Virus record (IMG/VR): IMGVR_UViG_2690316344_000014
DNA length: 31,116 bases
Strand: one strand, 5' to 3'
Source: a virus
Lineage: Duplodnaviria > Heunggongvirae > Uroviricota > Caudoviricetes
Shown one piece after another: positions 76 to 31,116 of this stretch. The position numbers and the translations under genes are program-made. Numbering within the stretch: position 1 is the first letter of the stretch; each line of letters begins with the position of its first letter. The notes beneath the pieces are model-generated. The model was not told the origin of the DNA and did no database searches. It was given only the letters and a program-made list of their open reading frames with translations.

Positions 76-420
76 CTAAATCAGTAAGTTGGCAGCATCA
101 CCAAACTCCCCTTCCGGCGATAACCAGGTAACATTTTCCGGTAACGGACCGAGTTCAGAAATAAATAACGCGTCCCCTGACGCTACGTCATAAACCATTT
201 TACCCCGATGGTCTTCAACGAGATGCCACGATGCCTCATCACTGTTGAAAACAGCCACGAAGCCTGCCGGAATATCTGGCGGTGCAATATCGGTACTGTT
301 TGCTGGCAGACCTGTATGAGGCGGAATATATGCATCACCTTCACCAATAAATTCATTAGTTCCGGCCAGCAGATTATAAATTTTTATGGTCCGTGATTGT
401 TCACTCATTCTGAATGCCAT
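76..420 (-). CDS. tfa: phage tail fibre assembly protein (Tfa), short 114-aa form
   Basis: N-terminus [39 protein letters not shown] matches the lambdoid Tfa family. Its ATG overlaps the stop of the upstream tail-fibre-type ORF by 1 nt (TAATG), the usual stf-tfa coupling. Shorter than the roughly 190-aa typical Tfa, so possibly truncated. Confidence 0.8.
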
Positions 421-2483
421 TATGCAAGCCTCACAATATAGTTAAATGCGATGTTTTTGACGGTGTTTTCCGCGTTACCAGCAGCGTTAACGGTGATGGT
501 GTGTCCATGTGAACCAATCGCAACAGAGTGCGTATGAGCACCAATACCGACAGTATGTGTGTGTGCACCTGCGCTTGCAGCAGTACCCGATACAGAGTGC
601 GTATGAGCGCCTGCAGAAGAAGTGTTAACACTGTATTTAGAATAATCAGGTGATCCACTTCCCGGAGCACCACTGGAACCACCTGAAACAAATGTCATCG
701 AATGGGTATGTGCACCGGCTGAAGCAGCCGTACCGCTAACACTATGGGTATGTGCACCAGTGTTATTCGTGGATTTAGTGCCGTAATCAAACGATGATGT
801 GGTTTTCGTCCCCAAATCCGTACTGGATGCGCTGGCGCTGTGGGTGTGCGATTTAATGCCGTCCTGTTCCTGAGACAATACGGCACGACCACTGGCGGGC
901 TTGCCCTTAATCGTCCAGCCACGCATATCCGTACCAATTTCGGTAAGGTAAACCCCGTTTTTGTTTCGCTTACGTGGCATGCTGGCCACAGGCTTTCCGT
1001 AGACGGATGCCCCTTTAATGGGGATCACCCGGAACAGCCCATGCTTTTTCGAGCGTTCATACACAATGGTCGGGTCAATCCCGCCAGTATCCCAGCAGAT
1101 ACGGGATACCGACATTTCTGCACCATTCCGGCGGATATAGGTTTTATTGATGGCCTCATCCACACGCAGCAGCGTCTGTTCATCGTCGTGGCGGCCCATA
1201 ATAATCTGCCGGTCAATCAGCCAGCTTTCCTCACCCGGCCCCCATCCCCATACGCGCATTTCGTAGCGATCCAGCTGGGAGTCGATACCGGCGGTCAGGT
1301 AAGCCACACGGTCAGGAACGGGCGCTGAATAATGCTCTTTCCGCTCTGCCATCACTTCAGCATCCGGACGTTCACCGATTTTCGCTTCCCACGTCTCACC
1401 GAGCGTGGTGTTCACGAAGGTTTTACGTTTTCCCGTATCCCCTTTCGTCTTCATCCAGTCTTTGACAATCTGCACCCAGGTGGTGAACGGACTGTACGCC
1501 GTCCAGATGTGAAAGGTCACGCTGTCCGGCGGCTCAATCTCTTCACCGGATGACGAAAACCAGAGAATGCCATCACGGGTCCAGATCCCGGTCTTTTCGC
1601 AGATATAACGGGCATCAGTGAAGTCCAGCTCCTGCTGGCGGATGACGCAGGCATTATGTTCGCAGAGATAAAACACGCTGGAGGGATCATCCGGCGTCCA
1701 TTTGAGGCCAAACGGCGTCTCTTTATCGCCAAATTTAAGGTACTGCTCCTCCCCGCAGTGCGGGCAGGCAACATGAAAACGCATAAAATGCGGGGATTCA
1801 CTGGCTGCACGCTCAATCTGACAGGTGCCTCTCACTTTGGGCGTGGAGCCACGGATGGACTTTGGCCAGACCGAGCCTTCAATACGCTTGTCACCCAGGA
1901 ACGTCGGAGAGCCTTCCTGTTCAATATCATCATCAAAAGCAGCAAGTTCATCATAACCCGCCACATCCACCGACTTTTCACGGTAGTTTTTTGCCGCTTT
2001 ACCGCCCAGGCACCAGAAGCCACGCCCATTAGTGAAACGCTTCATGGTGAGCGTGTTATCCCGGTGCTTTTTGCCATACCACGGGGCCAGCGCCAGCAGC
2101 GACGGAATATCACGAATAGTCGGCTCAACGTGGGTTTTCATAAAGTTCTCGGCATCACCATCCGTCGGCAACCAGATAAGGGTGTTGCGCTGCTTATGCT
2201 CTATGAAGTAGGCATAAACACCCAACAGCATTTTGGAATAACCGACACGGGCAGACTTCACCACATTCACCTCACGGATGTAGTCGCTGCCCATCGCATT
2301 CATGATGGCCCGCTGAAAGGGCAGTGTTTCCCAGCGCCCTTCCTGGTATGCGGATTCTTTCGGGAGATAGTAATTGGCATCCGCCCATTCAACGGCGGTC
2401 TGTGGCTCCGGCCTGAACAGTGAGCGAAGCCCGGCGCGGACAAAATGCCGCAGCCTGTTAACCTGACTGTTCGATATATTCAC
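420..2483 (-). CDS. chimeric ORF: terminase large subunit (lambda gpA-like) N-terminal ~557 aa fused in frame to a side tail fibre C-terminus (deletion remnant)
   Basis: The first ~557 residues ([43 protein letters not shown] ... VYLTEIGTD) follow lambda gpA as I remember it. From about nt 812 downward the frame continues into Gly/His-rich repeats ([20 protein letters not shown]) and ends ...[28 protein letters not shown], the lambda Stf C-terminus. Confidence 0.85.
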
Positions 2484-18331: not shown

Positions 18332-19405
18332 ATGGCGACTATACGCAAACGTGGTAACTACCAATGGGAAGCTCAAATCCGTAAACGTGGTTTTCCCTCT
18401 CAAACCAAAACCTTTAACACCAAAGTAGAAGCAGAAGCTTGGGCCAAAATGATCGAGTCAGAAATGGCGAGAGGAGTTTGGCTTAGCCGCAGCGAAGCGG
18501 AATCTACGACATTGTATGAAGCCCTAACGCGATATGAAAAAGAGATTGTTCCCGACAAAAAAGGGGCAGTGCAAGACCGATCATTGGTGCGGATACTAAA
18601 AGGCACTCAGCTGGCGAAAAACTATATGGCCAGCATCAGGAGTGCCGATGTCGCCAAGCTGAGAGATGAATGGTTGAAAATCTATGCTCCTGCAACCGTT
18701 TTAAGGCGTTTGGCCTTACTTTCTCATGTATTCAATGTTTCGCGGAAAGAATGGGGCATGGAGAGCCTGCTGAACCCCGTAGAGGCCATTCGCAAACCCC
18801 AACCCAAGAACTCCAGGACCAGACGCCTAGAAGCGCTGCCTGTAGTTTCTGAGAAAACCGGTGTTACGTCAGGAAAGCAAATAGCCAACGAGATCGAACA
18901 TATCATCGCCGCAACACATTCATTAGTATTGCCAGCAATCATTCTTCTGGCGTTAGAGACAGCCATGCGCCGTAGCGAAATCGCAGAGCTTCGATGGCGC
19001 TTTATCGATCTTGATCGGCGAGTTGCACATCTGCCGGATACTAAGAATGGTAATGCCCGCGATGTCCCTTTATCAACGAAAGCCATTACGATACTGTCCA
19101 GTCTCAAGGAACATTCTAAGCCAGCTGCTGATAAGGTTTTTGATATGCGTGCAGACGCGATTACCCGAGCTTTTGACCGAGCTGTAAAACGAGCCAGAGA
19201 ACGATACGAGAAAACAAACTCATTATGTGATGAATCTTTCCTTAAAGATTTAAGATTTCATGACCTTCGACATGAAGCAACTTCTCGACTTGCTGAAATT
19301 TTCCCTATGCATGAACTAACCAAAATTACAGGACATAAAGATCCAAGAATGCTAATGCGGTATTATCATCCAAAAGCTGAAGATTTGGCGTTAAAGTTGA
19401 AATAA
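18332..19405 (+). CDS. second tyrosine site-specific integrase/recombinase
   Basis: MATIRKRGNYQWEAQIRKRGF... with C-terminal catalytic residues (RRSE, LRFHDLRHEATSRL, MLMRYYH). The ORF can start at 18302. Lies just across the att fragment from the prophage int. Confidence 0.85.
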   Translation: MATIRKRGNYQWEAQIRKRGFPSQTKTFNTKVEAEAWAKMIESEMARGVWLSRSEAESTTLYEALTRYEKEIVPDKKGAVQDRSLVRILKGTQLAKNYMASIRSADVAKLRDEWLKIYAPATVLRRLALLSHVFNVSRKEWGMESLLNPVEAIRKPQPKNSRTRRLEALPVVSEKTGVTSGKQIANEIEHIIAATHSLVLPAIILLALETAMRRSEIAELRWRFIDLDRRVAHLPDTKNGNARDVPLSTKAITILSSLKEHSKPAADKVFDMRADAITRAFDRAVKRARERYEKTNSLCDESFLKDLRFHDLRHEATSRLAEIFPMHELTKITGHKDPRMLMRYYHPKAEDLALKLK

Positions 19406-19414
19406 GGACGTTGT

Positions 19415-20305
19415 ATGGATTATAAAAATAAGTTAGTTGATGCATCACCAAAATTAAACAACCCTCAACTATTGGCTATAATATACTTAATACCTTTTGG
19501 ATACTTGATTGTAGAAAACCCATTATGGCTAGAAAATATATACATTGCCGCTCCAATTTTCCTATCATCTATAGCTTTATTAACCAGTGTATACATAGGA
19601 TATCGTGATTTATTAAATAAAGTATTTAATAATGCAGTAGTTAAATGGGGCGTAACTGGCTTTACATATTCCGTATGCTTATGGATCGCAAAGTTTAAGC
19701 TTGACATAGCTTATGGTATAGTCCCAGAAAACCTTAATTACTCGACATTAGCTTATGCTTTCATGCTCTCATTTCCAATAGGGGCAATGATTTGTGCAAT
19801 TACAGTCTATATATACATATTTTTGCGAGATGTATCCCCAGCAAAAATAGTAATATCCTCTATGATTTCAGTATATATTGGAAGCTTGGCTCAACATCAT
19901 ATACAGGTGAACAATCTTCCTGAAAAAATAATATTAATAGGACTTATAATTATGGTCCCCTATAACATGGTCAATTTAGCTAGTTCATTAGTTATTAAAA
20001 GGAAATTTAATTTTAATCGTTTAGTATCAGGCTTATCCCTTTTTGCTGTGTCAGTTGCTCTTTTTATTATTAGCATGACAGCAATGAAATACATTGAAAG
20101 ATTTCAAGAAAAGTTTATTTTTCTCGATGCAAGAACATCTACGACATGTGGTAGCTCAGAAAGCAAATCTCTTTATATTGAAAAAAATGAAAATCAGTGT
20201 TATAAAATATCAGGAAATAAATTCTCGGAGTTAAGACTAACTCTTGTAGATAAAAACATCTTGAATATAAATAATAAAGGCACTTCAACTTATGAACAAA
20301 AATAA
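19415..20305 (+). CDS. hypothetical polytopic inner-membrane protein
   Basis: 296 aa, AT-rich codon usage, multiple long hydrophobic segments (LLAIIYLIPFGYLIV, AAPIFLSSIALLTSVYIGY, LIGLIIMVPYNMVNLASSLVI, LSLFAVSVALFIISM). No family recognised. Confidence 0.6.
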   Translation: MDYKNKLVDASPKLNNPQLLAIIYLIPFGYLIVENPLWLENIYIAAPIFLSSIALLTSVYIGYRDLLNKVFNNAVVKWGVTGFTYSVCLWIAKFKLDIAYGIVPENLNYSTLAYAFMLSFPIGAMICAITVYIYIFLRDVSPAKIVISSMISVYIGSLAQHHIQVNNLPEKIILIGLIIMVPYNMVNLASSLVIKRKFNFNRLVSGLSLFAVSVALFIISMTAMKYIERFQEKFIFLDARTSTTCGSSESKSLYIEKNENQCYKISGNKFSELRLTLVDKNILNINNKGTSTYEQK

Positions 20306-20519
20306 CCCTGCTAATTCATTTTCTATAGAAGCAAGGAAAGAAGCTTTTCGGAGAGCTGAAGCCAGTCTTTTTTATCAAGTAAAGATCCCAAAGGCTCCTC
20401 ATTTTTTAATGAAATAAAAACTAAGGTAATCAATGGAGAGCTAACCTATGAAGAGGCAAAGAGAGAAGTATTAAATTATCACATTGAACAATCTAAAAAT
20501 CAAAATAAAAAAGGCTAAC
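20292..20519 (+). pseudogene. small ORF split by a frameshift at a T6 run (41-aa 5' part plus 3' part in another frame)
   Basis: MNKNNPANSFSIEARKEAFRRAEASLFYQVKIPKAPHFLMK-stop. Adding one T at the T6 run (20405-20410) restores a 75-aa ORF ending ...NGELTYEEAKREVLNYHIEQSKNQNKKG. Function unknown. Confidence 0.3.
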
Positions 20520-20539
20520 ATTTAGTTAGCCTCTTCTCA

Positions 20540-20752
20540 CTAGTGAGCTATTTTATAGTCCCTTAATGCATTTTTAAGTAACTCCGTTTGCTCATCAGCA
20601 TCATCATAATTATAAATTCCCGTAGCAGAATAATACTCTTCGATGCATAGAATATTTATCAATGGTTCACAAATCTCTTTAATAAACTCCTTGTTGTTAT
20701 CGGCAAAAATAATTTTTATTCCTTCCAAAACAAAGCTATTATAATCAGCCAT
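20540..20752 (-). CDS. hypothetical small acidic protein
   Basis: 70-aa ORF 70 nt downstream of trbL on the same strand. No recognisable family. Confidence 0.4.
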   Translation of the reverse strand: MADYNSFVLEGIKIIFADNNKEFIKEICEPLINILCIEEYYSATGIYNYDDADEQTELLKNALRDYKIAH

Positions 20753-20782
20753 TATCCACCTCCTTACAGGTGTTTAGTGGAA

Positions 20783-20814
20783 GCGTCAGTTAACGTTACC
20801 GCGCTAACTGACGC
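20783..20814. repeat. hairpin: 10-bp inverted repeat with 12-nt loop between trbL and the 70-aa ORF
   Basis: GCGTCAGTTA (20783-20792) and TAACTGACGC (20805-20814). No flanking U-run. Confidence 0.3.
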
Positions 20815-20821
20815 GCCTAAA

Positions 20822-22225
20822 TCAAGATTTTTTACTGCCAGTTAAACTATCACCCTCAAACTCATCCTGTTCGTGGTTAGTCTGACGATCGGCTGTGTGT
20901 TTACGTATTTGATTCGCTATTTCCCCACCAACGGTCTGTTGTCTTCGGATAGTATTAGTACTTCCCTTCATCATCTGATACTCCGAAGCTCCGTTAGACA
21001 ACCCGCTCGCCATGTGAGAAGCCATGCGGCCAGCTCGTGAGAATGATGAAGCAAACCCCTGGCTTCCTCCGCTGACGCTACCTGTATTACTCCCTGCAGA
21101 AGAACCACCGGAACCGCCTGATGGTTGTCCTCCAGAAGTATCTACGGAACCGGTATCTTCCCCTCCGCCAAATCCTCCACCTGAACCACCTTTATCACCA
21201 GAACCAGATTCTTCGGCCATCGCCGCTTGTGCAGATTCAAATGCTGCTTTTAGAGCGGAAGCACCACCACTGACTTGAGCTGTAGCACTTATTGCCATTG
21301 CCCCAGCGCCACTGATTGCAGTAGTAGCAGCGCCAGTAATCATACCTGCTCCAAAACCACCGATCCCTTGTAAGGACGCTCCTCCAACAACGCCTGATAA
21401 CAACAACGGTAATTTATTCGTCAATACTAAAAGAATAATTGACGCCAGAAGTAAAACAATAAGACTATTAAGATCAGGAATATCATTTTTAATAATAGAA
21501 AAATACTGATCTATAAATGATTGCCCAATCCCAATGATTAATGTCATCGTAAATAACTGAATACCAATCGATAATACTGTGCGTAAGTAATTTATTGCTA
21601 TATCAGAAGTCCATTTCGAGCCACCAAACCCAAGCAAAATAACTCCTGCATAACACAACACCCATGCAGAAACTAACATTATTAGCATATTTATCGCGAT
21701 AAGCGCCATTACTACTAATACTATTATCGCGACGGTTATCATAATGGTCGAAATCATTGGAGACCAAATTGATGCTGCTGAACTGACCTTTGTTAATATC
21801 ACAAATGCCATATCCACTATGCTGGAGGGTGAAATACCAGTACTTGTTCCTAAAGCATTTGCTGCAAGTTGTCTCATTGAGTTAATTATAGATTGTGATA
21901 TGGCTGGGCCGTTGATTAAAAGATAATAAAAAAAACCAATCACGGCAAAAAAACGAACTATTTCTGCAAGTGCACTGATTAAACCTTCCCCTTGCATCGC
22001 CAACATACCAAATGTCCAAACCATACTTATTAATACCACCCCCCAGAAGAGCCAATTTGCATAATCACCAATTACTAATGACCATGTGCTGGCTACTTGC
22101 TGAAACTTATCTAATAACGTATCAAGTAATCCGCTACTATCTAATTGACCAGCATAAGCATTTACAGAAAACAAAAAAAACATTCCTAAAAAAGTGAGCT
22201 TGCTTACTATTCTCATAATTACCAT
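20822..22225 (-). CDS. trbL: P-type conjugative transfer protein TrbL/VirB6
   Basis: 467 aa. N-terminal signal plus multiple transmembrane helices, then a C-terminal Gly/Ser-rich low-complexity tail (GGSGGGFGGGEDTGSVDTSGGQPSGGSGGSSAGS), typical of TrbL. Confidence 0.8.
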   Translation of the reverse strand: MVIMRIVSKLTFLGMFFLFSVNAYAGQLDSSGLLDTLLDKFQQVASTWSLVIGDYANWLFWGVVLISMVWTFGMLAMQGEGLISALAEIVRFFAVIGFFYYLLINGPAISQSIINSMRQLAANALGTSTGISPSSIVDMAFVILTKVSSAASIWSPMISTIMITVAIIVLVVMALIAINMLIMLVSAWVLCYAGVILLGFGGSKWTSDIAINYLRTVLSIGIQLFTMTLIIGIGQSFIDQYFSIIKNDIPDLNSLIVLLLASIILLVLTNKLPLLLSGVVGGASLQGIGGFGAGMITGAATTAISGAGAMAISATAQVSGGASALKAAFESAQAAMAEESGSGDKGGSGGGFGGGEDTGSVDTSGGQPSGGSGGSSAGSNTGSVSGGSQGFASSFSRAGRMASHMASGLSNGASEYQMMKGSTNTIRRQQTVGGEIANQIRKHTADRQTNHEQDEFEGDSLTGSKKS

Positions 22226-22392
22226 TCTCGCTTAGGGCTAGGATTGTTATTGCCACGCAGGGCACATTTATCGTAGTTATGTTCGTTCAATTTATTCTCT
22301 GGCGTCGATAAACAATCTTCATCTTTTTTATCGCAAGAGCATAGAATTAATGAAATTATTAGAATAAAAATGACCAAAAGTTTATCTTTCAT
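22219..22392 (-). CDS. small putative lipoprotein in the TrbK (entry-exclusion) position
   Basis: Found by hand (57 aa, below the ORF-track cut-off): MKDKLLVIFILIISLILCSCDKKDEDCLSTPENKLNEHNYDKCALRGNNNPSPKREW. Hydrophobic N-terminus followed by Cys; sits between trbJ and trbL as trbK does in IncP plasmids. Confidence 0.45.
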   Translation of the reverse strand: MKDKLLVIFILIISLILCSCDKKDEDCLSTPENKLNEHNYDKCALRGNNNPSPKREW

Positions 22393-22403
22393 TCAGCTCT
22401 CCC

Positions 22404-23198
22404 TCACCAAATTCGCTTCGGGCTTGGTGTGTTCTCGCCAGCTAACGCTTTTTCATCAGCGACTATTTGTTGGGCTTCTTTATCAGCCTCAGCCTGTGCC
22501 AGTGTTGCTGCAGCGTTTTGCTGAGCTACCAGAAGCGAGCGGATTTGCAGCAACTGGTTCGTTTGAGCACTGGCAAGCTGGTTAGCGGCCTGAATAGCTT
22601 CCATTTGCCCTTGTGCGCCGGTTGCCTGCGTTTGTAAATCTGCAAGGTTGTCAGCATCGCTTTGCAGTGTTTCCTGCTGTTCGTCAAGAGCCTTAAATAC
22701 AGCGTCATTGGCCTTTTTACGTGCCTCAGAGCTGTTCTGTTCAGCTTTGCGCAGTGCGCTAATTTCATCCGCAGTACATTCAACATTACTGTTAAAGCAC
22801 GGTGATGAGCGGTAGTAATTCACGTCCTGATAACGTTTCAGATATGAATCAAGACTCCCGGCCTGGTTTTTGTAGTAATTTAGGGTGTCCTGCGCCTGCA
22901 ACAATTTGTTGATGGTCGAATTGGCCTGATCCCAGATATAGGCTGCAGGTGCGACTGTATTTTTGAGCATGTTTTCATACTGCTGCAGCTGCGTCTGGTA
23001 CTGCTGGATCTGTTTTGCCACAGCCTGAACGTTGTTGACTGCGCTGATTGTGGTCTGCACCACATTAGTACCATCGATTACAGGGATACCGGCTGTCGCC
23101 GGTAATGCCATGATGGACGCCAGGAAGGAAGCAGCTAATGATTTTTTAGCTGCTAAAATCCCTCTCAGTGATGAAAATACTCGGAGCATTAACTTCAT
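22404..23198 (-). CDS. trbJ: P-type conjugative transfer protein TrbJ (VirB5-like)
   Basis: 264 aa, signal peptide then a coiled-coil-rich Q/A-rich sequence (QIQQYQTQLQQYENMLKN ...). The trbJ-trbK-trbL order is conserved. Confidence 0.75.
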   Translation of the reverse strand: MKLMLRVFSSLRGILAAKKSLAASFLASIMALPATAGIPVIDGTNVVQTTISAVNNVQAVAKQIQQYQTQLQQYENMLKNTVAPAAYIWDQANSTINKLLQAQDTLNYYKNQAGSLDSYLKRYQDVNYYRSSPCFNSNVECTADEISALRKAEQNSSEARKKANDAVFKALDEQQETLQSDADNLADLQTQATGAQGQMEAIQAANQLASAQTNQLLQIRSLLVAQQNAAATLAQAEADKEAQQIVADEKALAGENTPSPKRIW

Positions 23199-23279
23199 TT
23201 GCCCACCTCAAATTTAACTGATTATTAATATTGAAAACTCGTACTTTTAACAAATACAGATATTTAGGAAACCATAAAT

Positions 23280-23645
23280 TTATTTATTCAAGATTCTATC
23301 CATAATATTTCTTAGTTCTTGTCTGGTTGATTCTATTTTAGCAAGCAACGTTTTTATCAATGAGGGTGAAAAATCAACTGTGCGTGGATCGTTAGCTAAC
23401 CACAGTTTAAGTAACCCACCAAGTCGACCAAGATCAGCATTTACTCGGCTAAGCTCTACAACCTGTTCAATATCTACCATAGACTCAACCTGATAACCCA
23501 TTGCTACTTTACGAATGAAACTCGCTACACTTAAGCCAGATGCTTCTGCATTATCCTGGATTTGCGCTTTTTCATCTGGCAAACAATAAACTTTAATTGG
23601 TGTACTATTTTTTCTAGTCTGAGAAACGGTCATATCATTCTCCAT
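23280..23645 (-). CDS. traJ: relaxosome accessory oriT-binding protein, TraJ/MobC family
   Basis: 121 aa with PIKVYCLPDE and DLGRLGGLLKLWL motifs resembling RP4 TraJ / the MobC family. Sits immediately beside an RP4-like oriT. Confidence 0.75.
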   Translation of the reverse strand: MENDMTVSQTRKNSTPIKVYCLPDEKAQIQDNAEASGLSVASFIRKVAMGYQVESMVDIEQVVELSRVNADLGRLGGLLKLWLANDPRTVDFSPSLIKTLLAKIESTRQELRNIMDRILNK

Positions 23646-23660
23646 ACAGGCGGTAGCCGA

Positions 23661-23765
23661 TCAGCCTCGCAGAGCAGGACTCCGTTGAGCAGCTCAGCTG
23701 CGAATAAGGGAAGGTAAAGTAGAAGCACCGTTTACGGTGGGCCTACTTTACATATCCTGCCCTAC
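23661..23765 (+). other. origin of transfer (oriT), IncP/RP4 type, with TraJ-binding inverted repeat and nic site
   Basis: CAGCCTCGCAGAGCAGGACTCCGTTGAGCAG ... GCGAATAAGGGAAGGTAAAGTAGAAGCACCGTTTACGGTGGGCCTACTTTACATATCCTGCCC closely parallels the RP4 oriT as I recall it from mob vectors. Inverted repeat GTAAAGTAG (23714-23722) / CTACTTTAC (23743-23751), then the ATCCTG/C nick consensus at 23754-23760. Confidence 0.8.
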
Positions 23766-23915
23766 ATTTGCCGTTGTGAATCTGTGTACGTATTGTGTAT
23801 TCCTGTGTACTCAGTGTGTTTTCCTAAAGCATTTGTGCAGGATTAGTAGTGTAAAAATGTGCAGCATATGTGTTTATTGGAATGGAAATTATTTGAATGA
23901 CCCTAAGAGATATTT

Positions 23916-24197
23916 TTATTCTCGCGGCTTGGGTTTTGGCGGCCTGCCACGTTTCCTTTGACATCTATTTATCTCTTTCGCTATATCGTCATTTTCTGTC
24001 TTTGACTCAACAGATTTATCTATCCAGTCCTTAACATCTTCTTTACGCCAGAGAAGACGTTTATTACCGGGAAGACGGCATCTTGGTGGAAGACATTTTG
24101 GATTTCGCGTTGCATCACTGCGGATACTTTTTACAGTTTTCTTTAATGCAAAAGCCAACTCTTCAACGGTTATAAGTTCTGGCATAACTGATTTCAT
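23916..24197 (-). CDS. alpA: AlpA-family DNA-binding protein (excisionase/transcriptional regulator-like)
   Basis: MKSVMPELITVEELAFALKKTVKSIRSDATRNPKCLPPRCRLPGNKRLLWRKEDVKDWI, the AlpA/MerR-like winged-HTH pattern, with a basic C-terminal tail. The ORF can start at 24209. Confidence 0.7.
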   Translation of the reverse strand: MKSVMPELITVEELAFALKKTVKSIRSDATRNPKCLPPRCRLPGNKRLLWRKEDVKDWIDKSVESKTENDDIAKEINRCQRKRGRPPKPKPRE

Positions 24198-24231
24198 CGA
24201 AGAACCCATCTCTCAGTAGAAATTTGAGGAT

Positions 24232-24259
24232 TTTAGCGGCTAAAATTTTAGCCGCTAAA
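24232..24259. promoter_or_regulatory. 28-bp perfect palindrome immediately upstream of alpA
   Basis: TTTAGCGGCTAAAA-TTTTAGCCGCTAAA, 23 nt upstream of the longest alpA start. Candidate operator. Confidence 0.45.
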
Positions 24260-24509
24260 GTTTGCTAACCAACGTTATGAATTGAGAATAATTAAAACTT
24301 ACTGGCAAAAAGAATAATGTCAACAGGGTTTTTATTCATCGGATTCTTACTCCATATGAAATTGGTTTTATTGACCGATTTCTGAATGACACTAAGGTTT
24401 TAATAATTCCTTTAATCTTTTTGGTTATATAAAAGGTTAAAGATCAGGTTAGAGAGGTGTGGAAAAGCGATATATTCACTTGTTTACTATGACAATTTTA
24501 AATTATATC

Positions 24510-24572
24510 CGTACCTCAAATGTCATGAAAGCGTACCTCATATGTCATAAAGGCGTACCTCATATGTCATAT
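24510..24572 (+). repeat. three tandem ~22-bp direct repeats (iteron-like)
   Basis: CGTACCTCAAATGTCATGAAAG, CGTACCTCATATGTCATAAAGG, CGTACCTCATATGTCATAT, head to tail. Confidence 0.7.
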
Positions 24573-24615
24573 AATAAAAAATAAGCAAACAAGTTATACA
24601 CAATATTATTAACAG

Positions 24616-24865
24616 AATCTGTGGATAAATACACAGATTATACATGATAAAATAGATTGTTTAGCTAAACTAAATAACAATAAATAAAATGAAACAAAAT
24701 GTAAATAACAGGGGGGGGGGTGTAAGTGACTTATAAATTTGGTTAGCTAACCTTTATAAGAAACACTGTTTGTAAATGATTCATTTCTGACAACGGATAT
24801 ATCGAATTTGAGTAAGAAAAACACTTCAACTAACCTTACTCTCTGATTTGTTTAGCTAAACAAAT
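24616..24865. promoter_or_regulatory. cluster of palindromes upstream of the higA-like gene, three sharing a TTAGCTAA core
   Basis: AATCTGTG-n8-CACAGATT (24616-24639); GTTTAGCTAAAC (24659-24670); CTTATAAA-ttt-GGTTAGCTAACC-TTTATAAG (24730-24760); ATTTGTTTAGCTAAACAAAT (24846-24865, 20 bp perfect). Confidence 0.5.
24711..24720. repeat. G10 homopolymer tract
   Basis: Ten consecutive G in an otherwise AT-rich intergenic region. Confidence 0.9.
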
Positions 24866-24889
24866 TACTGTAAGGAATCCGATGACGTT

Positions 24890-24904
24890 AAAAAAAAGGG
24901 GGGG
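24890..24904 (+). repeat. A8G7 homopolymer tract overlapping the ribosome-binding site of the higA-like gene
   Basis: AAAAAAAAGGGGGGG ends 2 nt before the ATG at 24907. Confidence 0.9.
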
Positions 24905-24906
24905 AT

Positions 24907-25164
24907 ATGAGGACAATAAATGCTGCACCTTCAACTGTCGGAGAGATTTTATACGAAGAATTCTTGAAACCATTGGATATGCCTCCCGCAAGACTTGCTG
25001 AACTGATGGATACATCATATGAAAAAATTTGGGAAATAATTAAAAATGAGCGAAATATAACTCTTGAAGAAGCTATTCAACTCTCGATAATTTTCAATAC
25101 AGATGCATCTTTTTGGGTGAAACTGCAAGAGCTACATGAGGCATGGTTTAATAAACAAAAGTAA
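24907..25164 (+). CDS. HigA-like XRE-family HTH protein (antitoxin-like / transcriptional regulator), apparently orphan
   Basis: 85 aa, MRTINAAPSTVGEILYEEFLKPLDMPPARLAELMDTSYEKIWEIIKNERNITLEEAIQLSIIFNTDASFWVKLQ, the HigA/VapI-type pattern. No HigB/RelE-like ORF found on either side. Confidence 0.7.
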   Translation: MRTINAAPSTVGEILYEEFLKPLDMPPARLAELMDTSYEKIWEIIKNERNITLEEAIQLSIIFNTDASFWVKLQELHEAWFNKQK

Positions 25165-25364
25165 GGTTATTCAATTAGATTACTTAGTCCTAATACATAA
25201 TTTGCTTTGAATAATACTCATACATTTCTAACGACTTATTAAAGCGATAATATACTCGGACGACTGAGGATTAAAAAATCCGATCCTTGATGATGGGAAC
25301 CTGCCATGACTAGGTAAGTCATTTTAGCAGTGGTACAGGCGACATTAAAAGCCGATATAAAGAA

Positions 25365-25397
25365 GCCCGACTGGTAAGATCGGGCCTTTTTATTTTT
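25365..25397 (+). terminator. rho-independent terminator
   Basis: GCCCGA-ctggtaaga-TCGGGC followed by CTTTTTATTTTT. Confidence 0.5.
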
Positions 25398-25782
25398 CCA
25401 CTCTGGCCTGAATGGAACATCCTACATTAGACGTTAAGATCTTACATCTAATTATCCGAAAATACTAATGGATGCGTAGTTGCATTTGACCTGACCGCCC
25501 ATTTGCGGGTTACTCTACCATCGCCAATAAAGTCCGGCTACTCGAATTCGGAAGTATTAGGCTATAGGTCATAAACCTGAATAACTGCTATGTGCTGAAG
25601 CGGATAAAGCTGACATCATTATGCACCAATCAACTCGGTGTAAGTCAGCTAGTTGGTGATGGAGTGACTTGTCAATAGTTGTAGCCCCTACCAGTGCATC
25701 GGAGATTCTTGAGTGTAACCTTAGTTGCTTTAATCAGAAGTAAAGGAAACGTACTATGAAAATCAGTACTCTTAATCAAGAG

Positions 25783-25812
25783 ATCCCCCGTTCTCTCACG
25801 GAAAAGGGGGAT
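25783..25812. terminator. hairpin just 3' of the 420-aa gene
   Basis: ATCCCCC-n16-GGGGGAT beside the stop at 25820; T-rich sequence follows on the plus strand. Confidence 0.3.
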
Positions 25813-25819
25813 TGAATTT

Positions 25820-27082
25820 TCAAATTTTCTTTTTAGCGATAAAAATACAGTAAAAATATAAGGTTTTGATAATGTGATTAATGCTGTGCACCTCGCGAAA
25901 TAATAGTAATAGCTTCCTCATAAAAGACATGAAACTAAGTTCGTTGTATTTAGTGCGTTCCATTCCTTCCTTAGCGAAATAGTAGGTTATCATCTGAATT
26001 GACTCTTTATATTCATATTTATAATGTGCAATGCCATTTCGCAGCTTGTTGTCTAAAGCATTGAGATCAACTATATAAAAGCTATCATCCAATCCGCTTA
26101 TTTTCGTGCCTAAATCAACGTTTGCATATTCGTTGAGACTAGAAAAACCTTTAATTAAATCGCCTTTTTTATTTAGTCTTACTGAATCGTCAAAAATATT
26201 ATGATCTCCGCGTTTTAATAAGTTATTCAATCCGGCCACAATTATTAATTGCCGAGAGAATACTTCAGATAAGTCTTTGTAAAAATTGTTACAGTCATCA
26301 AATTCGGCAGTTGAAACTCGAGCAGGAATCATTGATAAATCTACGTTTTTATCATAATCATAGTAAAGCGCTGGGCGTGAAGGGAGTTCAAAGTCAAGCA
26401 TTTTGGGATATAGGCTTAAACAATCGAAATGCAAACTTTTCAGAAACCCACTTCCAATAATATCATCTAAAAATTTATTTAGCTGTTTTGGATGATTTTT
26501 CTGAATATAATGAAGAAATTGTGGCATTTTTTCACTAATTTCAGCATTATGTGCATGTATTGTAAAGGGAAATGACATTGCAGAGGTTGCTGTATAAAGT
26601 GCGGAAAGGATATCTTGTATTTTTAGCGAACGAGGTTTTTTCAGAGTAGGTAATTCTTTCATTAGGTTACTGAAAGTATTGTAATTTCCTTGTTTGTATT
26701 GAGTAATGAGTCGCTGGAGCTTATCGCGATGTTTATAAATATAATTCATTCCATTTAGATGTGCGTTCAGCATTAAGTATTTTTCATGACCTATTGCACT
26801 TGTTATTTTTAAGAATGCTGTTTTTCCTATTTCGTATTTTCCAAAGCCTACGGGAAAATCTAAATGCAAATCGATGAATGGATTTGTTGTGCCAAAGTCA
26901 TTGCTTTCTACAGTTTCCGCACCGTTAAATACAGGCTCTCCCTCCCCAAGAGTAAACGATATATTATTCTCACAATTTGGACATGCAAATTGGAACGGTT
27001 GTATGTCTCGATTAGACATACCTATTCTTGTATCAATGACCGTGTCACATACAAGGCATTTAAATTGCTGTAAAAAATTCAT
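25820..27082 (-). CDS. hypothetical protein with N-terminal zinc-ribbon (CxxC ... CxxC), 420 aa
   Basis: MNFLQQFKCLVCDTVIDTRIGMSNRDIQPFQFACPNCEN: Cys9/Cys12 and Cys34/Cys37. AT-rich; no family recognised by eye. Confidence 0.6.
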   Translation of the reverse strand: MNFLQQFKCLVCDTVIDTRIGMSNRDIQPFQFACPNCENNISFTLGEGEPVFNGAETVESNDFGTTNPFIDLHLDFPVGFGKYEIGKTAFLKITSAIGHEKYLMLNAHLNGMNYIYKHRDKLQRLITQYKQGNYNTFSNLMKELPTLKKPRSLKIQDILSALYTATSAMSFPFTIHAHNAEISEKMPQFLHYIQKNHPKQLNKFLDDIIGSGFLKSLHFDCLSLYPKMLDFELPSRPALYYDYDKNVDLSMIPARVSTAEFDDCNNFYKDLSEVFSRQLIIVAGLNNLLKRGDHNIFDDSVRLNKKGDLIKGFSSLNEYANVDLGTKISGLDDSFYIVDLNALDNKLRNGIAHYKYEYKESIQMITYYFAKEGMERTKYNELSFMSFMRKLLLLFREVHSINHIIKTLYFYCIFIAKKKI

Positions 27083-27329
27083 AAATATTTTATTAATCCT
27101 ATAAATTATAAGTTAAGTATTAGTCTTTTATCTACAAACCAAAGCCACTTTACTACTTTACCTAACTGCACTTTAAACAATCATAAGTTCTTTTTTTTTA
27201 AAAAGGTAGTCCAAAGATACCAATTTATTCAATATCAACGAGAATTCGAGACTCCTATGTGAGTAAAAAACTATGAGCTTCATGCCATGCTTTCAATAAA
27301 TGTCTTCAGTTACCCATAAATTTACTGGA

Positions 27330-27857
27330 TTAACAATTTGTAGTCTTTCCGACCAAATTACCGCGCGCAGTGTGACCCCATACTTTAGATGTCACCTTAT
27401 CTCTTTCCACTAGTTGTTTACGGTGCATCAAATCGGCAAGCAGTATTGAAACAAAGAACATGAATTTTGTTTTGGGAGTATTAGGAACATCTTTGGGTCC
27501 AAGCCAAGGTAGCTGCTCCAGTTGATTTTGTATTTTGGGTGTTGCGAAGCTAACACCATTCCAACTATGCCCAAAAGCATTTCTAATGCTACGCAGTGTG
27601 TTTAGTTCTTTGTATTCGTGTTCCATTATCAGTCCTAACGCATATGCTAAGCCTGTTCTAGCAGCAAAAGATGATAAAGGCGCTGTTGCACCATTCAGTA
27701 GACCTTTAGCTACTTTGTCATTTAACAGGTGAGCCTGGATGATCTCGGATAACCACTCATCGAAAATGGATGCTGCTATTAGAACAGAGCCACGATCTGA
27801 TTCTTTATTTAGTTCGGACAAAAATTGACCGAGTTCAATTTGGGTTTTATCACTCAC
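27330..27857 (-). CDS. HEPN/MtlR-like protein with Rx4H motif (candidate RNase-type toxin or abortive-infection protein)
   Basis: 175 aa. The N-terminus (GSVLIAASIFDEWLSEIIQAHLL) resembles the MtlR/HEPN helical fold; RNAFGH (R92-x4-H97, nt 27567-27584) fits the HEPN Rx4-6H motif. Confidence 0.5.
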   Translation of the reverse strand: MSDKTQIELGQFLSELNKESDRGSVLIAASIFDEWLSEIIQAHLLNDKVAKGLLNGATAPLSSFAARTGLAYALGLIMEHEYKELNTLRSIRNAFGHSWNGVSFATPKIQNQLEQLPWLGPKDVPNTPKTKFMFFVSILLADLMHRKQLVERDKVTSKVWGHTARGNLVGKTTNC

Positions 27858-28371
27858 AGACTCTGGAACTCCTTTCTCAAAAATTCAACATGAGGACGCT
27901 TCGGTCGCACATCAATCTTAACCATTAGATTATGAAATTGTGTTAGGTCTGGGTCAAACTATGAACAAAAACAGAAAAAATTATTGTGACGTTATTTAGG
28001 GGGACCTACAATGACACATTTTAAACAATTACTTTAATATCAATAAATTGGATCGTATTACTGTGTTCCTATTATTGGTTTAGCTCAGCTTGTCGCTCAC
28101 AGCGGACCTTCAGCTCGATAGCAAGTCCGCTCCGTTGGAGTGCCAGATGCGCTCTAAATTTGATGGCTAGTATTGAAGAGATACTTGGGCATCATGGTTA
28201 TGGTGTAAATACCGTCTGTGATACCCGCAGAGGTGCTAGGTTTAGGCACTGAGAAGGATACATTGAACATGAATTCAGAGTGATGTAACACAAGTCATAG
28301 AAAATTAGTGATTTATATTGAAAAGGGGGCTATTTTATTAAAGCAAGGCCGCCTTTAGGCAGCCTCTTATT

Positions 28372-29049
28372 TTACATGTAGATATTCATTAAACTGTCAA
28401 ATAGTCTTTTGGTTAACTCTTTTTCCGCTCGTGCTTCGATTTGAGCCATACCATTTCGGAAGAGTTTTAATTTACCGCTAAATTCTTGGTCATGAATAGT
28501 ACATGTCAATCGATCAAGTCTCATTTTTTTGTGAATAAGCTCATCTTTGAAATATTTTTTAAGATCGCTGGTACTATTAATTTGCATCTTGGCAAGAGCA
28601 AATTCAGCAACTTGAATTTGAGATACATCTAGTTGCACTATATTAAGTGTCAACTCTGTGTTTAAAGAACTGAACCATATGAACGGGTCAATCTCAATCT
28701 CTTCTAAGCTGGTACCAAGACCAAGGTTTTTTACCAGTGCCTGAGCAAATGGTTTAAGTGTTCTCGGTGGATTATCAATAAGTAAAACTGGGGTGTATTG
28801 TTCGTCAAAACTGAAAGATGTTACTCTATATTCAATGCGTTCAACAGCGGTACTGTTGCCGTATAGATTACTTATTCTATCTTCGCTAATTATCTTTTCG
28901 ATGAAGCGAGCGTGAAAATGAGATGTTCGTGATTTATCAAATATAAACCCTTTCCCTTTCTCTTCAGTAAAAGGATCACGCATGAGTTTTTCAACTGTTT
29001 CACTAGTAGTGAAACGATTGTTGAGTTTAATCCATTTAAATTTTTTCAT
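28372..29049 (-). CDS. hypothetical protein, gene C of a coupled three-gene operon
   Basis: 225-aa ORF whose start overlaps the last 14 nt of the upstream gene. AT-rich; no recognisable motif. Confidence 0.6.
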   Translation of the reverse strand: MKKFKWIKLNNRFTTSETVEKLMRDPFTEEKGKGFIFDKSRTSHFHARFIEKIISEDRISNLYGNSTAVERIEYRVTSFSFDEQYTPVLLIDNPPRTLKPFAQALVKNLGLGTSLEEIEIDPFIWFSSLNTELTLNIVQLDVSQIQVAEFALAKMQINSTSDLKKYFKDELIHKKMRLDRLTCTIHDQEFSGKLKLFRNGMAQIEARAEKELTKRLFDSLMNIYM

Positions 29050-30115
29050 GCTCTTCCACCTTTTTACCCGTCACGATATTATAGGCGTCTGCTGCTGACT
29101 GTTCAATTAGTAGGCTGATTTTCTTCTTTTCAACTTCATTTGCTGCACGAATAGTAACATTGTATCCACTACCTTTTTGGTTATTGATTCCTTTAATTTG
29201 ATAGGAAAAATCAGAGCAATTTTCTGAATCCTTAAAGAAAGCTTCAACCAAAATCCTGTCTCCTATTCCGTTTTTAGGTTTAGCAGACCAAGCAATTCTT
29301 CCAATATAGTATCCTTTGTTATGTAGTTGGGTGAAAATAGCAGAACTATTAACAGAATCACCTTTTAGAACCGCTTTTTTTACGAATCCTGTCTCGATTT
29401 CTTCTTCTTCCTCGTCATCACCTTTGCTTGTTGAACGGTTAAGCTCTACATTAGTAACGTCGTCAATTTCATATCCACTCAAGCCGCCCATAACCTCTTG
29501 AAAAAACTGACTTCTTAGCGCTGGTGTAGGAATCGCTTCTAAAGAAATTTCAAACTTTTCAACATCAACGGATTTAATCTTTGACAACTCTTTTTGTAAT
29601 AGTGTTATTACATCTTTAGCCTTTTGGTTCTGAGGCATACGAATATCAACATTATCGTTATTTACAGTAAGATCAATCTTGATGTTTCGGTTGTCTATCT
29701 GACGCAATGCTGTTCTGGACAAGTCTACTTCTTGGTAGTTTACCTCGATTGCTAAAGACCCATCTTTTTTCGCAGTGATTTTTACTGTTTCACCAGAGCC
29801 AGTGGCTAATTTTCTTTTAACTAACTCTGCTGCTGTTTTTAATTCCGTCTGAGAGGATGATGCTTGAAGCTTGACGCTAGTTATACTCTCTCTTTTATCA
29901 TAAGTTTGTACAAGTTCCTTAATAGAATCTAGATCACTATATCCCTGAGGTAGTTTGCAAACCTCTTCAATTAATTCCTCCTTTGTTAAGTCTTGAGCAA
30001 CAATAATACCTTTCCGTAATAATATCTCGCGTAATCTTGCGATGGTAATTCGTTTATGATGAAGTGCATCATATATATTTTTGTCAGTTGCGAAATAAAT
30101 ATTCATGTTATTCAT
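29036..30115 (-). CDS. hypothetical protein, gene B of a coupled three-gene operon
   Basis: 359 aa with an acidic stretch (GDDEEEEEIE). Its ATG overlaps the upstream stop by 1 nt (TAATG). No family recognised. Confidence 0.6.
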   Translation of the reverse strand: MNNMNIYFATDKNIYDALHHKRITIARLREILLRKGIIVAQDLTKEELIEEVCKLPQGYSDLDSIKELVQTYDKRESITSVKLQASSSQTELKTAAELVKRKLATGSGETVKITAKKDGSLAIEVNYQEVDLSRTALRQIDNRNIKIDLTVNNDNVDIRMPQNQKAKDVITLLQKELSKIKSVDVEKFEISLEAIPTPALRSQFFQEVMGGLSGYEIDDVTNVELNRSTSKGDDEEEEEIETGFVKKAVLKGDSVNSSAIFTQLHNKGYYIGRIAWSAKPKNGIGDRILVEAFFKDSENCSDFSYQIKGINNQKGSGYNVTIRAANEVEKKKISLLIEQSAADAYNIVTGKKVEEHEKI

Positions 30116-31116
30116 TAACGTTGCTCCATGCCTATAGCTTCAAGACTATATTGAATTACCATTGCAGCTGTTTTTTCGAATGCAACTTTTGAAAACAAAC
30201 GTTCACTTTCGCCTGATAGCCAATGGGCACTATATTTTTGCTTTGCTCTTTCAAAGTGATGAATGGAGTCTTCATGCGGATTTATATGACAATGTCTAAT
30301 TTTTATTCTTTTTGCATCAGTCAGTATTTGATAATTAGAAAGCATGTCAAGGAAATAGATGAACTCATCTTCACTATTCCCTGGTTGATTATAATAAATT
30401 ACGTAACCACTATCTTCTTTTTCACCCATCCAATCGAATTCTTCATGCTTTATTATTATGAATGGTGATGTTAAGACCTCAACAGTAGCTGCAGTCTTAT
30501 TGTTGATAGGATGTTTTATCCTAGTTAGTGCTAAGTCTGGGTAATAGAAATAGTACAAATCTGGTTGAGGTAAAGCCCCGGTACCAATAAGCATTTTAAT
30601 ATCTGATGCTATATTTATCATATCGGATATTTTGAATGGATCTAAAAGGTGTAATTTTATGTTTGGGGGGCATTTTATTATTTCAGGGTCGACTTTCTTC
30701 ATCACGGATGAGTAAAAATCCTTGTCATAAAGGTTGTCATGATTATAGAGAAATAATAAACCTCGAACTTTGTAACCTAATGACTCATCCCGCACATATC
30801 GTTTACACCACTGTTGGCTAATGTTGGCGCATTCTGTAGCGAGAGCTAAAGAAGAAAGTGCACCTTCTACCATCCCTTTGCCGATACTACTTTGAGCATA
30901 GCTTTTGAGGTCTGTGTTCAAGTACACAATCTCTTCTTCATAAGGATCGGTATAGTAAAACACCACATCGCTAGGATGTGTTTTTTTGTCATGAGCCTCT
31001 AGGTCGCAATCCCAGTTCATATCTTGACTAGTAGCTCGTTGCCATTTGAAAATTTTAAAAATATCTTGGGTTATCTTATTTGCAACATGCTGTATTGAAG
31101 AGGTCTCTCCGCCCAT
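30115..31116 (-). CDS. hypothetical protein, gene A of a coupled three-gene operon; possible PD-(D/E)xK nuclease-like motif; start at or beyond the window edge
   Basis: At least 333 aa. The ORF reaches the last base of the window, where an ATG lies. A hydrophobic strand ending in Asp (DVVFYYTD57) is followed by EIVYLNTD69-L-K71, a pattern like restriction-endonuclease-fold motifs II/III. Confidence 0.55.
   Translation of the reverse strand: MGGETSSIQHVANKITQDIFKIFKWQRATSQDMNWDCDLEAHDKKTHPSDVVFYYTDPYEEEIVYLNTDLKSYAQSSIGKGMVEGALSSLALATECANISQQWCKRYVRDESLGYKVRGLLFLYNHDNLYDKDFYSSVMKKVDPEIIKCPPNIKLHLLDPFKISDMINIASDIKMLIGTGALPQPDLYYFYYPDLALTRIKHPINNKTAATVEVLTSPFIIIKHEEFDWMGEKEDSGYVIYYNQPGNSEDEFIYFLDMLSNYQILTDAKRIKIRHCHINPHEDSIHHFERAKQKYSAHWLSGESERLFSKVAFEKTAAMVIQYSLEAIGMEQR

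Follow-up and report, generated by a model that had tools for sequence, protein, structure and literature searches.

The window analyzed here is the whole 31,116-nt stretch of DNA held as the Caudoviricetes virus record IMGVR_UViG_2690316344_000014 in IMG/VR, and the gene under study lies on its minus strand at 25820..27082, where it encodes a protein of 420 amino acids (aa). An identity check found no difference between the protein and RefSeq WP_052741624.1 and a single-residue difference from WP_001395316.1. It matches phrog_13366 over its full length (E 6e-229), a family labeled 'unknown function' in PHROGs, and the 12 E. coli genomes with the gene annotate it as 'hypothetical protein'. The open reading frame (ORF) is a real gene, and the following features were assigned to it and to the DNA on both sides:

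25820..27082, minus strand: coding sequence of the 420-aa zinc-ribbon/helical/HEPN protein, an ATG-initiated ORF
26819..27082, minus strand: N-terminal beta domain, residues 1-88
26333..26818, minus strand: central all-helical domain, residues 89-250
25823..26332, minus strand: C-terminal HEPN-like putative ribonuclease (RNase) region, residues 251-420
26252..26266, minus strand: E273-x3-R277, upstream acidic Ex3[KR] motif in helix 261-291, from conservation
26024..26041, minus strand: predicted catalytic motif R348-N349-G-I-A-H353 (HEPN Rx4-6H), from conservation
27083..27329, minus strand: upstream intergenic region of 247 nt with a promoter-like site
27134-27105, minus strand: promoter-like site found by motif match (-35 TAGATA, 18 nt, -10 TATAAT)
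25783..25812, minus strand: hairpin 8 nt past the stop codon, 12-bp stem, -15.7 kcal/mol

The sequence-only reading of this DNA had given the gene an upstream intergenic region of its own and terminator-like hairpins on either side. The intergenic region is real, and promoter-like matches within its 247 nt were no commoner than in shuffled sequence. No tandem repeats and no Rfam matches at E<=0.1 were found in this spacer, and an RNA antitoxin of the type III toxin-antitoxin kind or a riboswitch was ruled out on these grounds. As for the hairpins, the one downstream of the gene is present and is a possible weak terminator (z -1.0 versus shuffles), whereas the one upstream found no support (z -0.08).

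An AlphaFold2 model built with 32 homologs (predicted local distance difference test score 87.7, predicted template modeling score 0.88) divides the protein into three parts. The N-terminal CxxC-x21-CxxC zinc ribbon that had been noticed in the letters is exact (C9-L-V-C12 ... C34-P-N-C37), and this Cys4 ribbon (C9, C12, C34, C37) is joined within residues 1-88 by three more strands bearing the conserved motif FxDLHLDFP (69-77). The central helical domain (89-250) has no detectable relatives, and helix 1 of the HEPN bundle is probably formed by the helices at its end (213-240). In the model, the C-terminal part is a second helical region (251-415), laid out as a helix at 261-291 (helix 2), an insert at 292-344, a helix at 345-353 that ends in RNxxxH (helix 3), a beta-hairpin insert at 356-383 and a helix at 384-415 (helix 4).

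This layout was compared with the known features of HEPN domains. Their hallmark is the motif Rx4-6H with a polar residue (N, D or H) directly after the Arg, which is located at the end of helix 3 or the start of the loop to helix 4 in an up-down core of four helices, of which helices 2 and 3 are separated by an insert, while helix 2 typically bears a second, acidic motif Ex3[KR] (Anantharaman et al., 2013, PMC3710099). The 420-aa protein has R348-N349-x3-H353, and according to the predicted secondary structure this motif is placed as in HEPN domains, with helices 2 and 3 and the insert between them. E273-x3-[R/K]277 is found in the helix 261-291, which also bears D270, N287 and R291. Structural similarity to solved HEPN domains was found as well.

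Conservation is concentrated at the same positions. C34, C37, R348 and H353 do not vary in 57 aligned relatives with identities as low as 18%, and C9, C12, R19, D270, E273, N287 and N349 are at least 90% conserved. In helix 2 the counts are 56 of 57 for both E273 and N287, 54 for D270 and 50 for R291, and position 277 is Arg in 29 and Lys in 10 (together 39/57). In 88 more divergent sequences, which share 17-40% identity with the query, invariance is limited to R348 and H353, and N349 is conserved at 90% or more. Every one of the 87 distant full-length members carries R[ND]xxxH, 85 of them between residues 302 and 401; in the two others (P0189 and P0232) it occurs only at ∼300 and the aligned position is non-canonical. 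Of the three parts, the N-terminal beta domain is the best conserved in close relatives; by segment, conservation there peaks in the zinc ribbon (1-45), the helix 261-295 and residues 344-360, and variation is greatest at ∼175-205, inside the central helical domain. Judged from this conservation, R348, N349 and H353 would be the catalytic residues of a HEPN site, aided by E273 and R277.

Database searches with the 420-aa protein gave no match in Pfam, NCBIfam or PADLOC; matches to Bromodomain and DUF4897 (E 0.1-0.8) were dismissed as noise. When the 88 divergent members were searched against Pfam, the only recurrent match apart from zinc-ribbon models and SEC-C (9/88) was to pEK499_p136, a HEPN family, in seven members (best E 0.0047), and one member matched the HEPN family Abi_2 (E 0.004), all of these matches being below the curated cut-offs. 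Alignment of the family with the MtlR-like HEPN protein encoded next to it in the window, using hhalign, paired the motif alone, at a probability of 8%. Searches of PDB sequences with two family profiles returned nothing credible; designed helical repeats, histones and zinc fingers (E>1e-4) were rejected as compositional, and Foldseek against the PDB gave nothing below E 0.7. A profile of the C-terminal domain alone, used to look for other domain fusions, retrieved just fragments of the same family, and in atypically long members Pfam found nothing but SEC-C motifs. That the C-terminal region is not a HEPN domain at all is considered very improbable. In none of Pfam, NCBIfam, PADLOC, the PDB profiles and Foldseek was homology to a characterized non-defense protein found, which the sequence-only reading had named as a way to refute a role in defense.

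A HEPN fold does not by itself imply catalysis. Several HEPN families are non-catalytic binders, such as MtlR and the nucleotidyltransferase-associated HEPNs (PMC3710099), and the 420-aa protein could likewise be catalytically silent or non-defensive, either as a zinc-ribbon nucleic-acid-binding regulator like genuine MtlR or as an RNA-processing factor riding mobile DNA. Its zinc ribbon shows strong conservation and many Arg, Asn and Gln residues, and the SEC-C motifs or polybasic tails of some distant members suggest RNA or ribosome binding. However, the non-catalytic families lose Rx4-6H (PMC3710099), whereas here Arg and His are the sole invariant residues and the Asn after the Arg and the upstream Glu are kept, and the patchy distribution on mobile DNA (0.2% of E. 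coli genomes) speaks against a housekeeping function. A silent or non-defensive protein is thus held to be improbable.

The C-terminal additions were observed in several members. A SEC-C zinc-binding motif stands at the C-terminal end of nine of the 88 divergent homologs, including Enterococcus and Lactococcus plasmid copies, and long Lys/Arg-rich tails close other divergent homologs (examples of SEC-C motifs or tails are P0230, P0233, P0237, P0254, P0258, P0262, P0264, P0265 and P0269, and P0215, P0217, P0236 and P0250). Both additions hint at an association with RNA or the ribosome.

The family is widespread. At E<=1e-3, 359 homologs were retrieved from a collection of 5.8 billion proteins, all of ∼420 aa and all called 'hypothetical', and 1.84 billion representatives, searched exhaustively with a profile at the same threshold, gave ∼470 clusters at 50% identity, nearly all 400-470 aa long and matched end to end. 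Members were found in Pseudomonadota, Bacteroidota, Planctomycetota, Nitrospirota and on plasmids of Bacillota. A tblastn search of 50,697 phage genomes gave no match, though PHROGs holds the family as phrog_13366. The sole homolog with an archaeal label (39% identity; positions 205-1395 of a 3.6-kb contig, L048) belongs to a metagenome-assembled genome labeled Methanosarcinales archaeon, which could be a binning error or a genuine transfer.

Genomic contexts were examined in one genome per species, which resulted in 79 loci with homologs 31-61% identical to the 420-aa protein, from alpha-, beta- and gammaproteobacteria, Bacteroidota, Nitrospirota and Planctomycetota. The Cellvibrio homolog is located directly behind Gabija, with a ParE/Phd pair and a transposase nearby; that of Pseudomonas protegens lies 5 kb from Gabija and adjoins a KAP NTPase, and that of Vibrio parahaemolyticus is found in a serine-recombinase island with GmrSD and a methylase. 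In Providencia the gene stands at a prophage end beside the integrase, and another homolog is part of a small integrase/Bro/Rep/MobA element, an integrative mobilizable element. The Enterobacter homolog is carried by a P4-like satellite. In Klebsiella it is inserted in a P2-like prophage between gpA and ogr/portal, and this gpA-portal site corresponds to the cos-proximal hotspot of old and tin in P2, which was shown to be a reservoir of defense systems (PMC9122126). Homologs were also present in 43 plasmid records, 38 of them mobilizable or conjugative, from hosts including Yersinia ruckeri, Leclercia, Sinorhizobium, Enterococcus, Lactococcus garvieae and Bacillus thuringiensis. Among the 147 nearest-neighbor ORFs, PADLOC identified GajB (3), type I methylase (2), type I restriction subunit (2), pAgo (2) and LmuB (2), and Pfam added integrases, resolvases and transposases. 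The association of the homologs with defense and mobile genes that had been called for as a check was therefore found, in qualitative terms, at a P2 hotspot, a P4-like satellite, a prophage end, a mobilizable element and plasmids and beside Gabija, type I restriction-modification (R-M), pAgo and Lamassu. In Yersinia kristensenii a 77%-identical homolog is followed by a gene pair for an AAA ATPase and an S8 peptidase (L091, 2985-6360), which looks like a candidate defense module.

A further indication of a defense function comes from DefensePredictor (PMC13092281). Its Table S10 ('Predictions for 3,000 E. coli strains', sheet uncharacterized_clusters) includes WP_052741624.1 with a mean log-odds of 6.50 (standard deviation 0.23, range 6.14-6.81), predicted_defensive TRUE, in the category 'Predicted novel defense gene' and with no HHblits or Foldseek match to known defense proteins recorded. 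The strict cut-off is 4 and the overall experimental validation rate is 45%; the protein is not among the systems assayed as DS-1 to DS-45, and its score is a machine-learning prediction (PMC13092281). The one-residue variant WP_001395316 appeared in no main text of the literature searched, and the identical WP_052741624 was sought in one paper only.

The constant association with mobile elements could also mean that the gene serves the element itself, as an addiction or stabilization toxin, as a factor that excludes competing plasmids, phages or satellites, or as an anti-defense or establishment protein. It is always found on mobile elements, 38 of the 43 plasmid records are mobilizable or conjugative, as mentioned, and in the window it adjoins a TraJ/TrbJ/TrbL remnant. 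In addition, a distant homolog is located on an Enterococcus conjugative plasmid together with AcrIIA9, PcfJ and DpnD/PcfM-type genes. However, an addiction toxin requires an antidote and none is conserved, location in P2/P4 hotspots and beside Gabija, R-M, pAgo and Lamassu genes is typical of anti-phage cargo, exclusion of competing phages is in practice defense, and DefensePredictor scores the protein as defensive. Service to the mobile element is accordingly regarded as unlikely, if the most credible of the alternatives to a defense gene that acts alone. The Enterococcus copy (Enterococcus faecalis plasmid pEFS108_1, L096, 5977-7341) is annotated 'SEC-C metal-binding domain-containing protein', and its block with the AcrIIA9-family, PcfJ and DpnD/PcfM genes resembles the anti-defense/establishment region of a conjugative plasmid, an odd location for a defense gene.

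Around the gene, the window contains the following features:

27330-27857, minus strand: MtlR-like gene, 175 aa (Pfam MtlR E 2.7e-6; phrog_22031)
28372-31116, minus strand: 3HP defense system genes Hp3, Hp2 and Hp1 (PADLOC E 3e-80, 2e-160 and 5e-176)
24907-25164, plus strand: HigA-family antitoxin-like helix-turn-helix gene, convergent with the 420-aa gene
23916-24209, minus strand: excisionase-like 97-aa gene (phrog_6355 / phrog_66)
20822-23645, minus strand: P-type conjugation remnant (TrbL, TrbJ, TraJ)
420-2483, minus strand: 687-aa ORF with terminase gpA ATPase, truncated gpA nuclease domain and tail-fiber repeat (residues 573-586)

The MtlR-like gene and the three 3HP genes are located upstream of the 420-aa gene on the same strand. 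Conserved partners were searched for at the 79 loci. A tblastn search with all window neighbors detected no relative of the MtlR-like, 3HP or HigA genes within 8 kb, and all-against-all clustering of 4351 flanking ORFs yielded no conserved neighbor family; the flanking clusters that seemed conserved were rejected, as they consisted only of antisense ORFs within the 420-aa gene itself. The nearest upstream gene clustered with nothing from another locus in 58 of 74 cases and the nearest downstream gene in 63 of 73, and no nucleotidyltransferase was found among the 25 commonest Pfam families of the 147 nearest neighbors. The 420-aa gene is not part of 3HP, whose Hp1-3 relatives are confined to the same E. 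coli island and absent at the 79 other loci. These results bear out the view that the gene is an independent module, with the reservation that an MtlR-like gene precedes it in all eight places examined within its own island lineage.

This reservation leaves room for a local partnership. The 420-aa protein could be the toxic half of a two-gene module in which the MtlR-like protein is the regulator, antitoxin or co-sensor, for instance as a HEPN-HEPN heterodimer. An identical MtlR-like protein is encoded 247 nt upstream in 8/8 places, and the pair is kept in the two of these in which the 3HP genes are lost (L108 and L110). The MtlR-like protein has an intact HEPN-type motif (RNAFGH), so that RNxxxH is present in both proteins, and it is set in a defense island and not in a mannitol operon. 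Moreover, an MtlR-like protein is the second gene of 'Aernus', a validated system of the P4 hotspot (PMC13586616), and this neighbor may be a defense component or regulator in its own right. On the other side, the proteins are identical, and the eight places are thus the same island and not independent. None of the 79 loci has a relative of the MtlR-like gene within 8 kb, relatives of the 420-aa protein with 73-78% identity (in Providencia and in a small integrative element) also lack one, one E. coli strain retains the 420-aa gene after the MtlR-like gene was lost upon insertion of an insertion sequence (IS), and the 247-nt spacer carries its own promoter-like site. Taken together, a two-gene module seems slightly less credible still than service to the mobile element.

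'Aernus' itself ('kinase and nuclease protein plus mannitol repressor') was rejected as a match for the 420-aa protein, because its large protein combines PDDEXK (DUF4365) with AbiGii and is not a zinc-ribbon HEPN protein. Peptide and DNA strings of the 420-aa gene were absent from the supplements of PMC13586616.

A chromosomal island found in 12 of 5426 complete E. coli genomes (0.2%) matches the segment of the window that carries these genes at 99.7-100% identity; it is bounded by an integrase gene and tRNA-Thr/proA. GC content falls to 33-37% across 19-31 kb (19000-31116), versus 45-54% in most of the left part, a drop that fits a recent horizontal transfer of the entire cargo block. The conjugation remnant, in which one E. 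coli strain has a frameshifted TrbL (L097), and the excisionase-like gene give the island the look of a decayed integrative conjugative element. The annotation of Hp1 is PD-(D/E)XK nuclease (PF26115 PDDEXK_GAPS4), and in some island relatives the 3HP genes are swapped for IS1 or deleted. No HigB-like toxin ORF of at least 25 aa was found beside the HigA-like gene, which is therefore an orphan, either antitoxin or regulator. A lambdoid prophage remnant makes up the left 18 kb of the window, and the 687-aa ORF in it probably arose by a deletion that fused genes of this cryptic prophage. This ORF is followed, up to ∼18.2 kb, by Nu1, a porin, an AraC regulator, a PEBP protein, a serine recombinase, an IS3 transposase, RecT and an integrase. 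ARAGORN identified no tRNA genes in the window.

The ORF, its family, the conserved motifs, the fold similarity, the missing conserved partner, the genomic contexts and the machine-learning score lead to the reading that is favored here, by a modest lead over even odds: the 420-aa protein is a stand-alone anti-phage abortive-infection RNase borne by mobile elements, with a HEPN effector that is gated by a zinc-ribbon/helical sensor. RNase activity, auto-inhibition, the choice of sensing domain, trigger and phenotype are the parts that we infer. The suggestion that the gene encodes an abortive-infection or sensor protein is supported insofar as its sole assignable enzymatic domain is of the HEPN RNase type, the effector of many such defense proteins.

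In the proposed mechanism, the C-terminal HEPN ribonuclease domain would be the effector. HEPN active sites are normally composite, and the 420-aa protein is therefore probably a dimer or higher oligomer. In the uninfected cell the protein would be held inactive by the N-terminal ribbon and the helical domain, which would explain the absence of an accompanying antitoxin gene. The Cys4 zinc-ribbon domain and the central helical domain are proposed to detect an infection cue, either a phage protein or a nucleic acid, and sensing of this cue would lead to a change in conformation or assembly that switches the HEPN site on. Metal-independent cutting of cellular and phage RNA (tRNA, rRNA or mRNA), which for an enzyme of the HEPN superfamily would leave 2',3'-cyclic phosphate ends, might then halt translation and phage production.

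A further step, put forward tentatively and with more doubt than trust, is that the zinc-ribbon beta domain and the central helical domain constitute a new type of infection sensor that gates a HEPN RNase. The Arg/Asn/Gln-rich ribbon might then read a conserved nucleic-acid or ribosome-associated cue, compare the SEC-C motifs and polybasic tails of the distant members, and the hypervariable helix (∼175-205) would tune phage specificity. Activation might use trigger-templated oligomerization as in RAZR, which is described below, although both the scaffold and the target RNA would differ from those of RAZR.

If the favored reading holds, it would add a widespread family (∼470 clusters at 50% identity) to the single-gene HEPN defense systems, and with it a sensor module without a structural relative. 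Since Pfam, NCBIfam and PADLOC miss the family entirely, inventories of defense systems undercount it. The DefensePredictor entry consists of an accession and a score, and the domain map, the candidate catalytic residues and the hypervariable region given here are the first mechanistic annotation. Another HEPN effector will be no surprise to specialists; what makes the protein a good experimental target is a sensor half without precedent, a broad family and predictions ready for mutational and domain-swap experiments.

Among known systems, RAZR / PD-T7-4 (ring-activated zinc-finger RNase; Zhang et al., Nature 2026, PMC13017515), which was found by Vassallo et al. (2022), resembles the 420-aa protein in its logic. 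RAZR is a 25-kDa protein (roughly 220 aa) composed of a Cys4 zinc ribbon and a DUF4145 HEPN domain, and it is inactive until a 24-mer forms around rings of the phage portal or of Erf-like proteins, after which it cuts single-stranded RNA (PMC13017515). The two domains of RAZR are adjacent, whereas in the 420-aa protein a helical domain of ∼160 residues lies between them. The motif of RAZR is R146...H154 (Rx7H) in DUF4145, whereas the 420-aa protein has the canonical RNxxxH and matches neither DUF4145 nor a PADLOC model. Finally, the zinc finger is the most variable region of RAZR and the most conserved region of the 420-aa protein among close relatives. Neither the sequence nor the two-domain architecture with a hypervariable zinc finger thus places it in the RAZR / PD-T7-4 family. 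The comparison raises the question whether the combination of zinc ribbon and HEPN is a recurrent way to couple phage sensing to RNA cleavage, and whether this always works via templated assembly.

DS-38 ('HEP2', WP_001313577.1) is also a single protein with a HEPN domain (RNRVVH) and cysteine-rich zinc fingers, validated against the phages Bas19 and Bas25 (PMC13092281). At 366 aa, it has its HEPN domain at the N-terminus and multiple zinc fingers at the C-terminus, an order reversed with respect to the 420-aa protein. Homology was rejected, as hhalign of the family alignment gave a probability of 1% with just one CxxC aligned, and the two families are therefore unrelated. The Abi2/AbiD/AbiF (PF07751) and pEK499_p136-like (PF18736) families are HEPN abortive-infection proteins, either stand-alone or associated with R-M, and share an RNxxxH-type motif with the 420-aa protein, but the N-terminal zinc ribbon and central helical domain are foreign to them. 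The 420-aa protein itself matched neither model, and for Abi_2 (PF07751) only the one relative mentioned above did, at E 0.004. Zinc-ribbon fusions were reported for the Abi2/Swt1 clade (Npun_R5629) in the 2013 HEPN survey (PMC3710099).

ApeA (Gao et al., 2020) and DS-11 (CBS-HEPN) share the logic of an N-terminal sensor or regulatory part joined to a HEPN effector without an antitoxin; their N-terminal domains differ from those of the 420-aa protein, which gave no match to the PADLOC models for ApeA. The HEPN-MNT toxins of types II and VII (PDB 7ae2 and 5yep) are proteins of ∼130-150 aa that are always paired with an MNT nucleotidyltransferase antitoxin, and the 79 loci, with no conserved neighbor, set the 420-aa protein apart from them. 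Its architecture appears analogous to those of RAZR/PD-T7-4 and DS-38, and it is a member of neither. It is concluded that the protein, which others had flagged computationally without annotation, stands for a family and an architecture that are new, but of a well-known kind: defense or abortive-infection proteins of the single-gene HEPN type.

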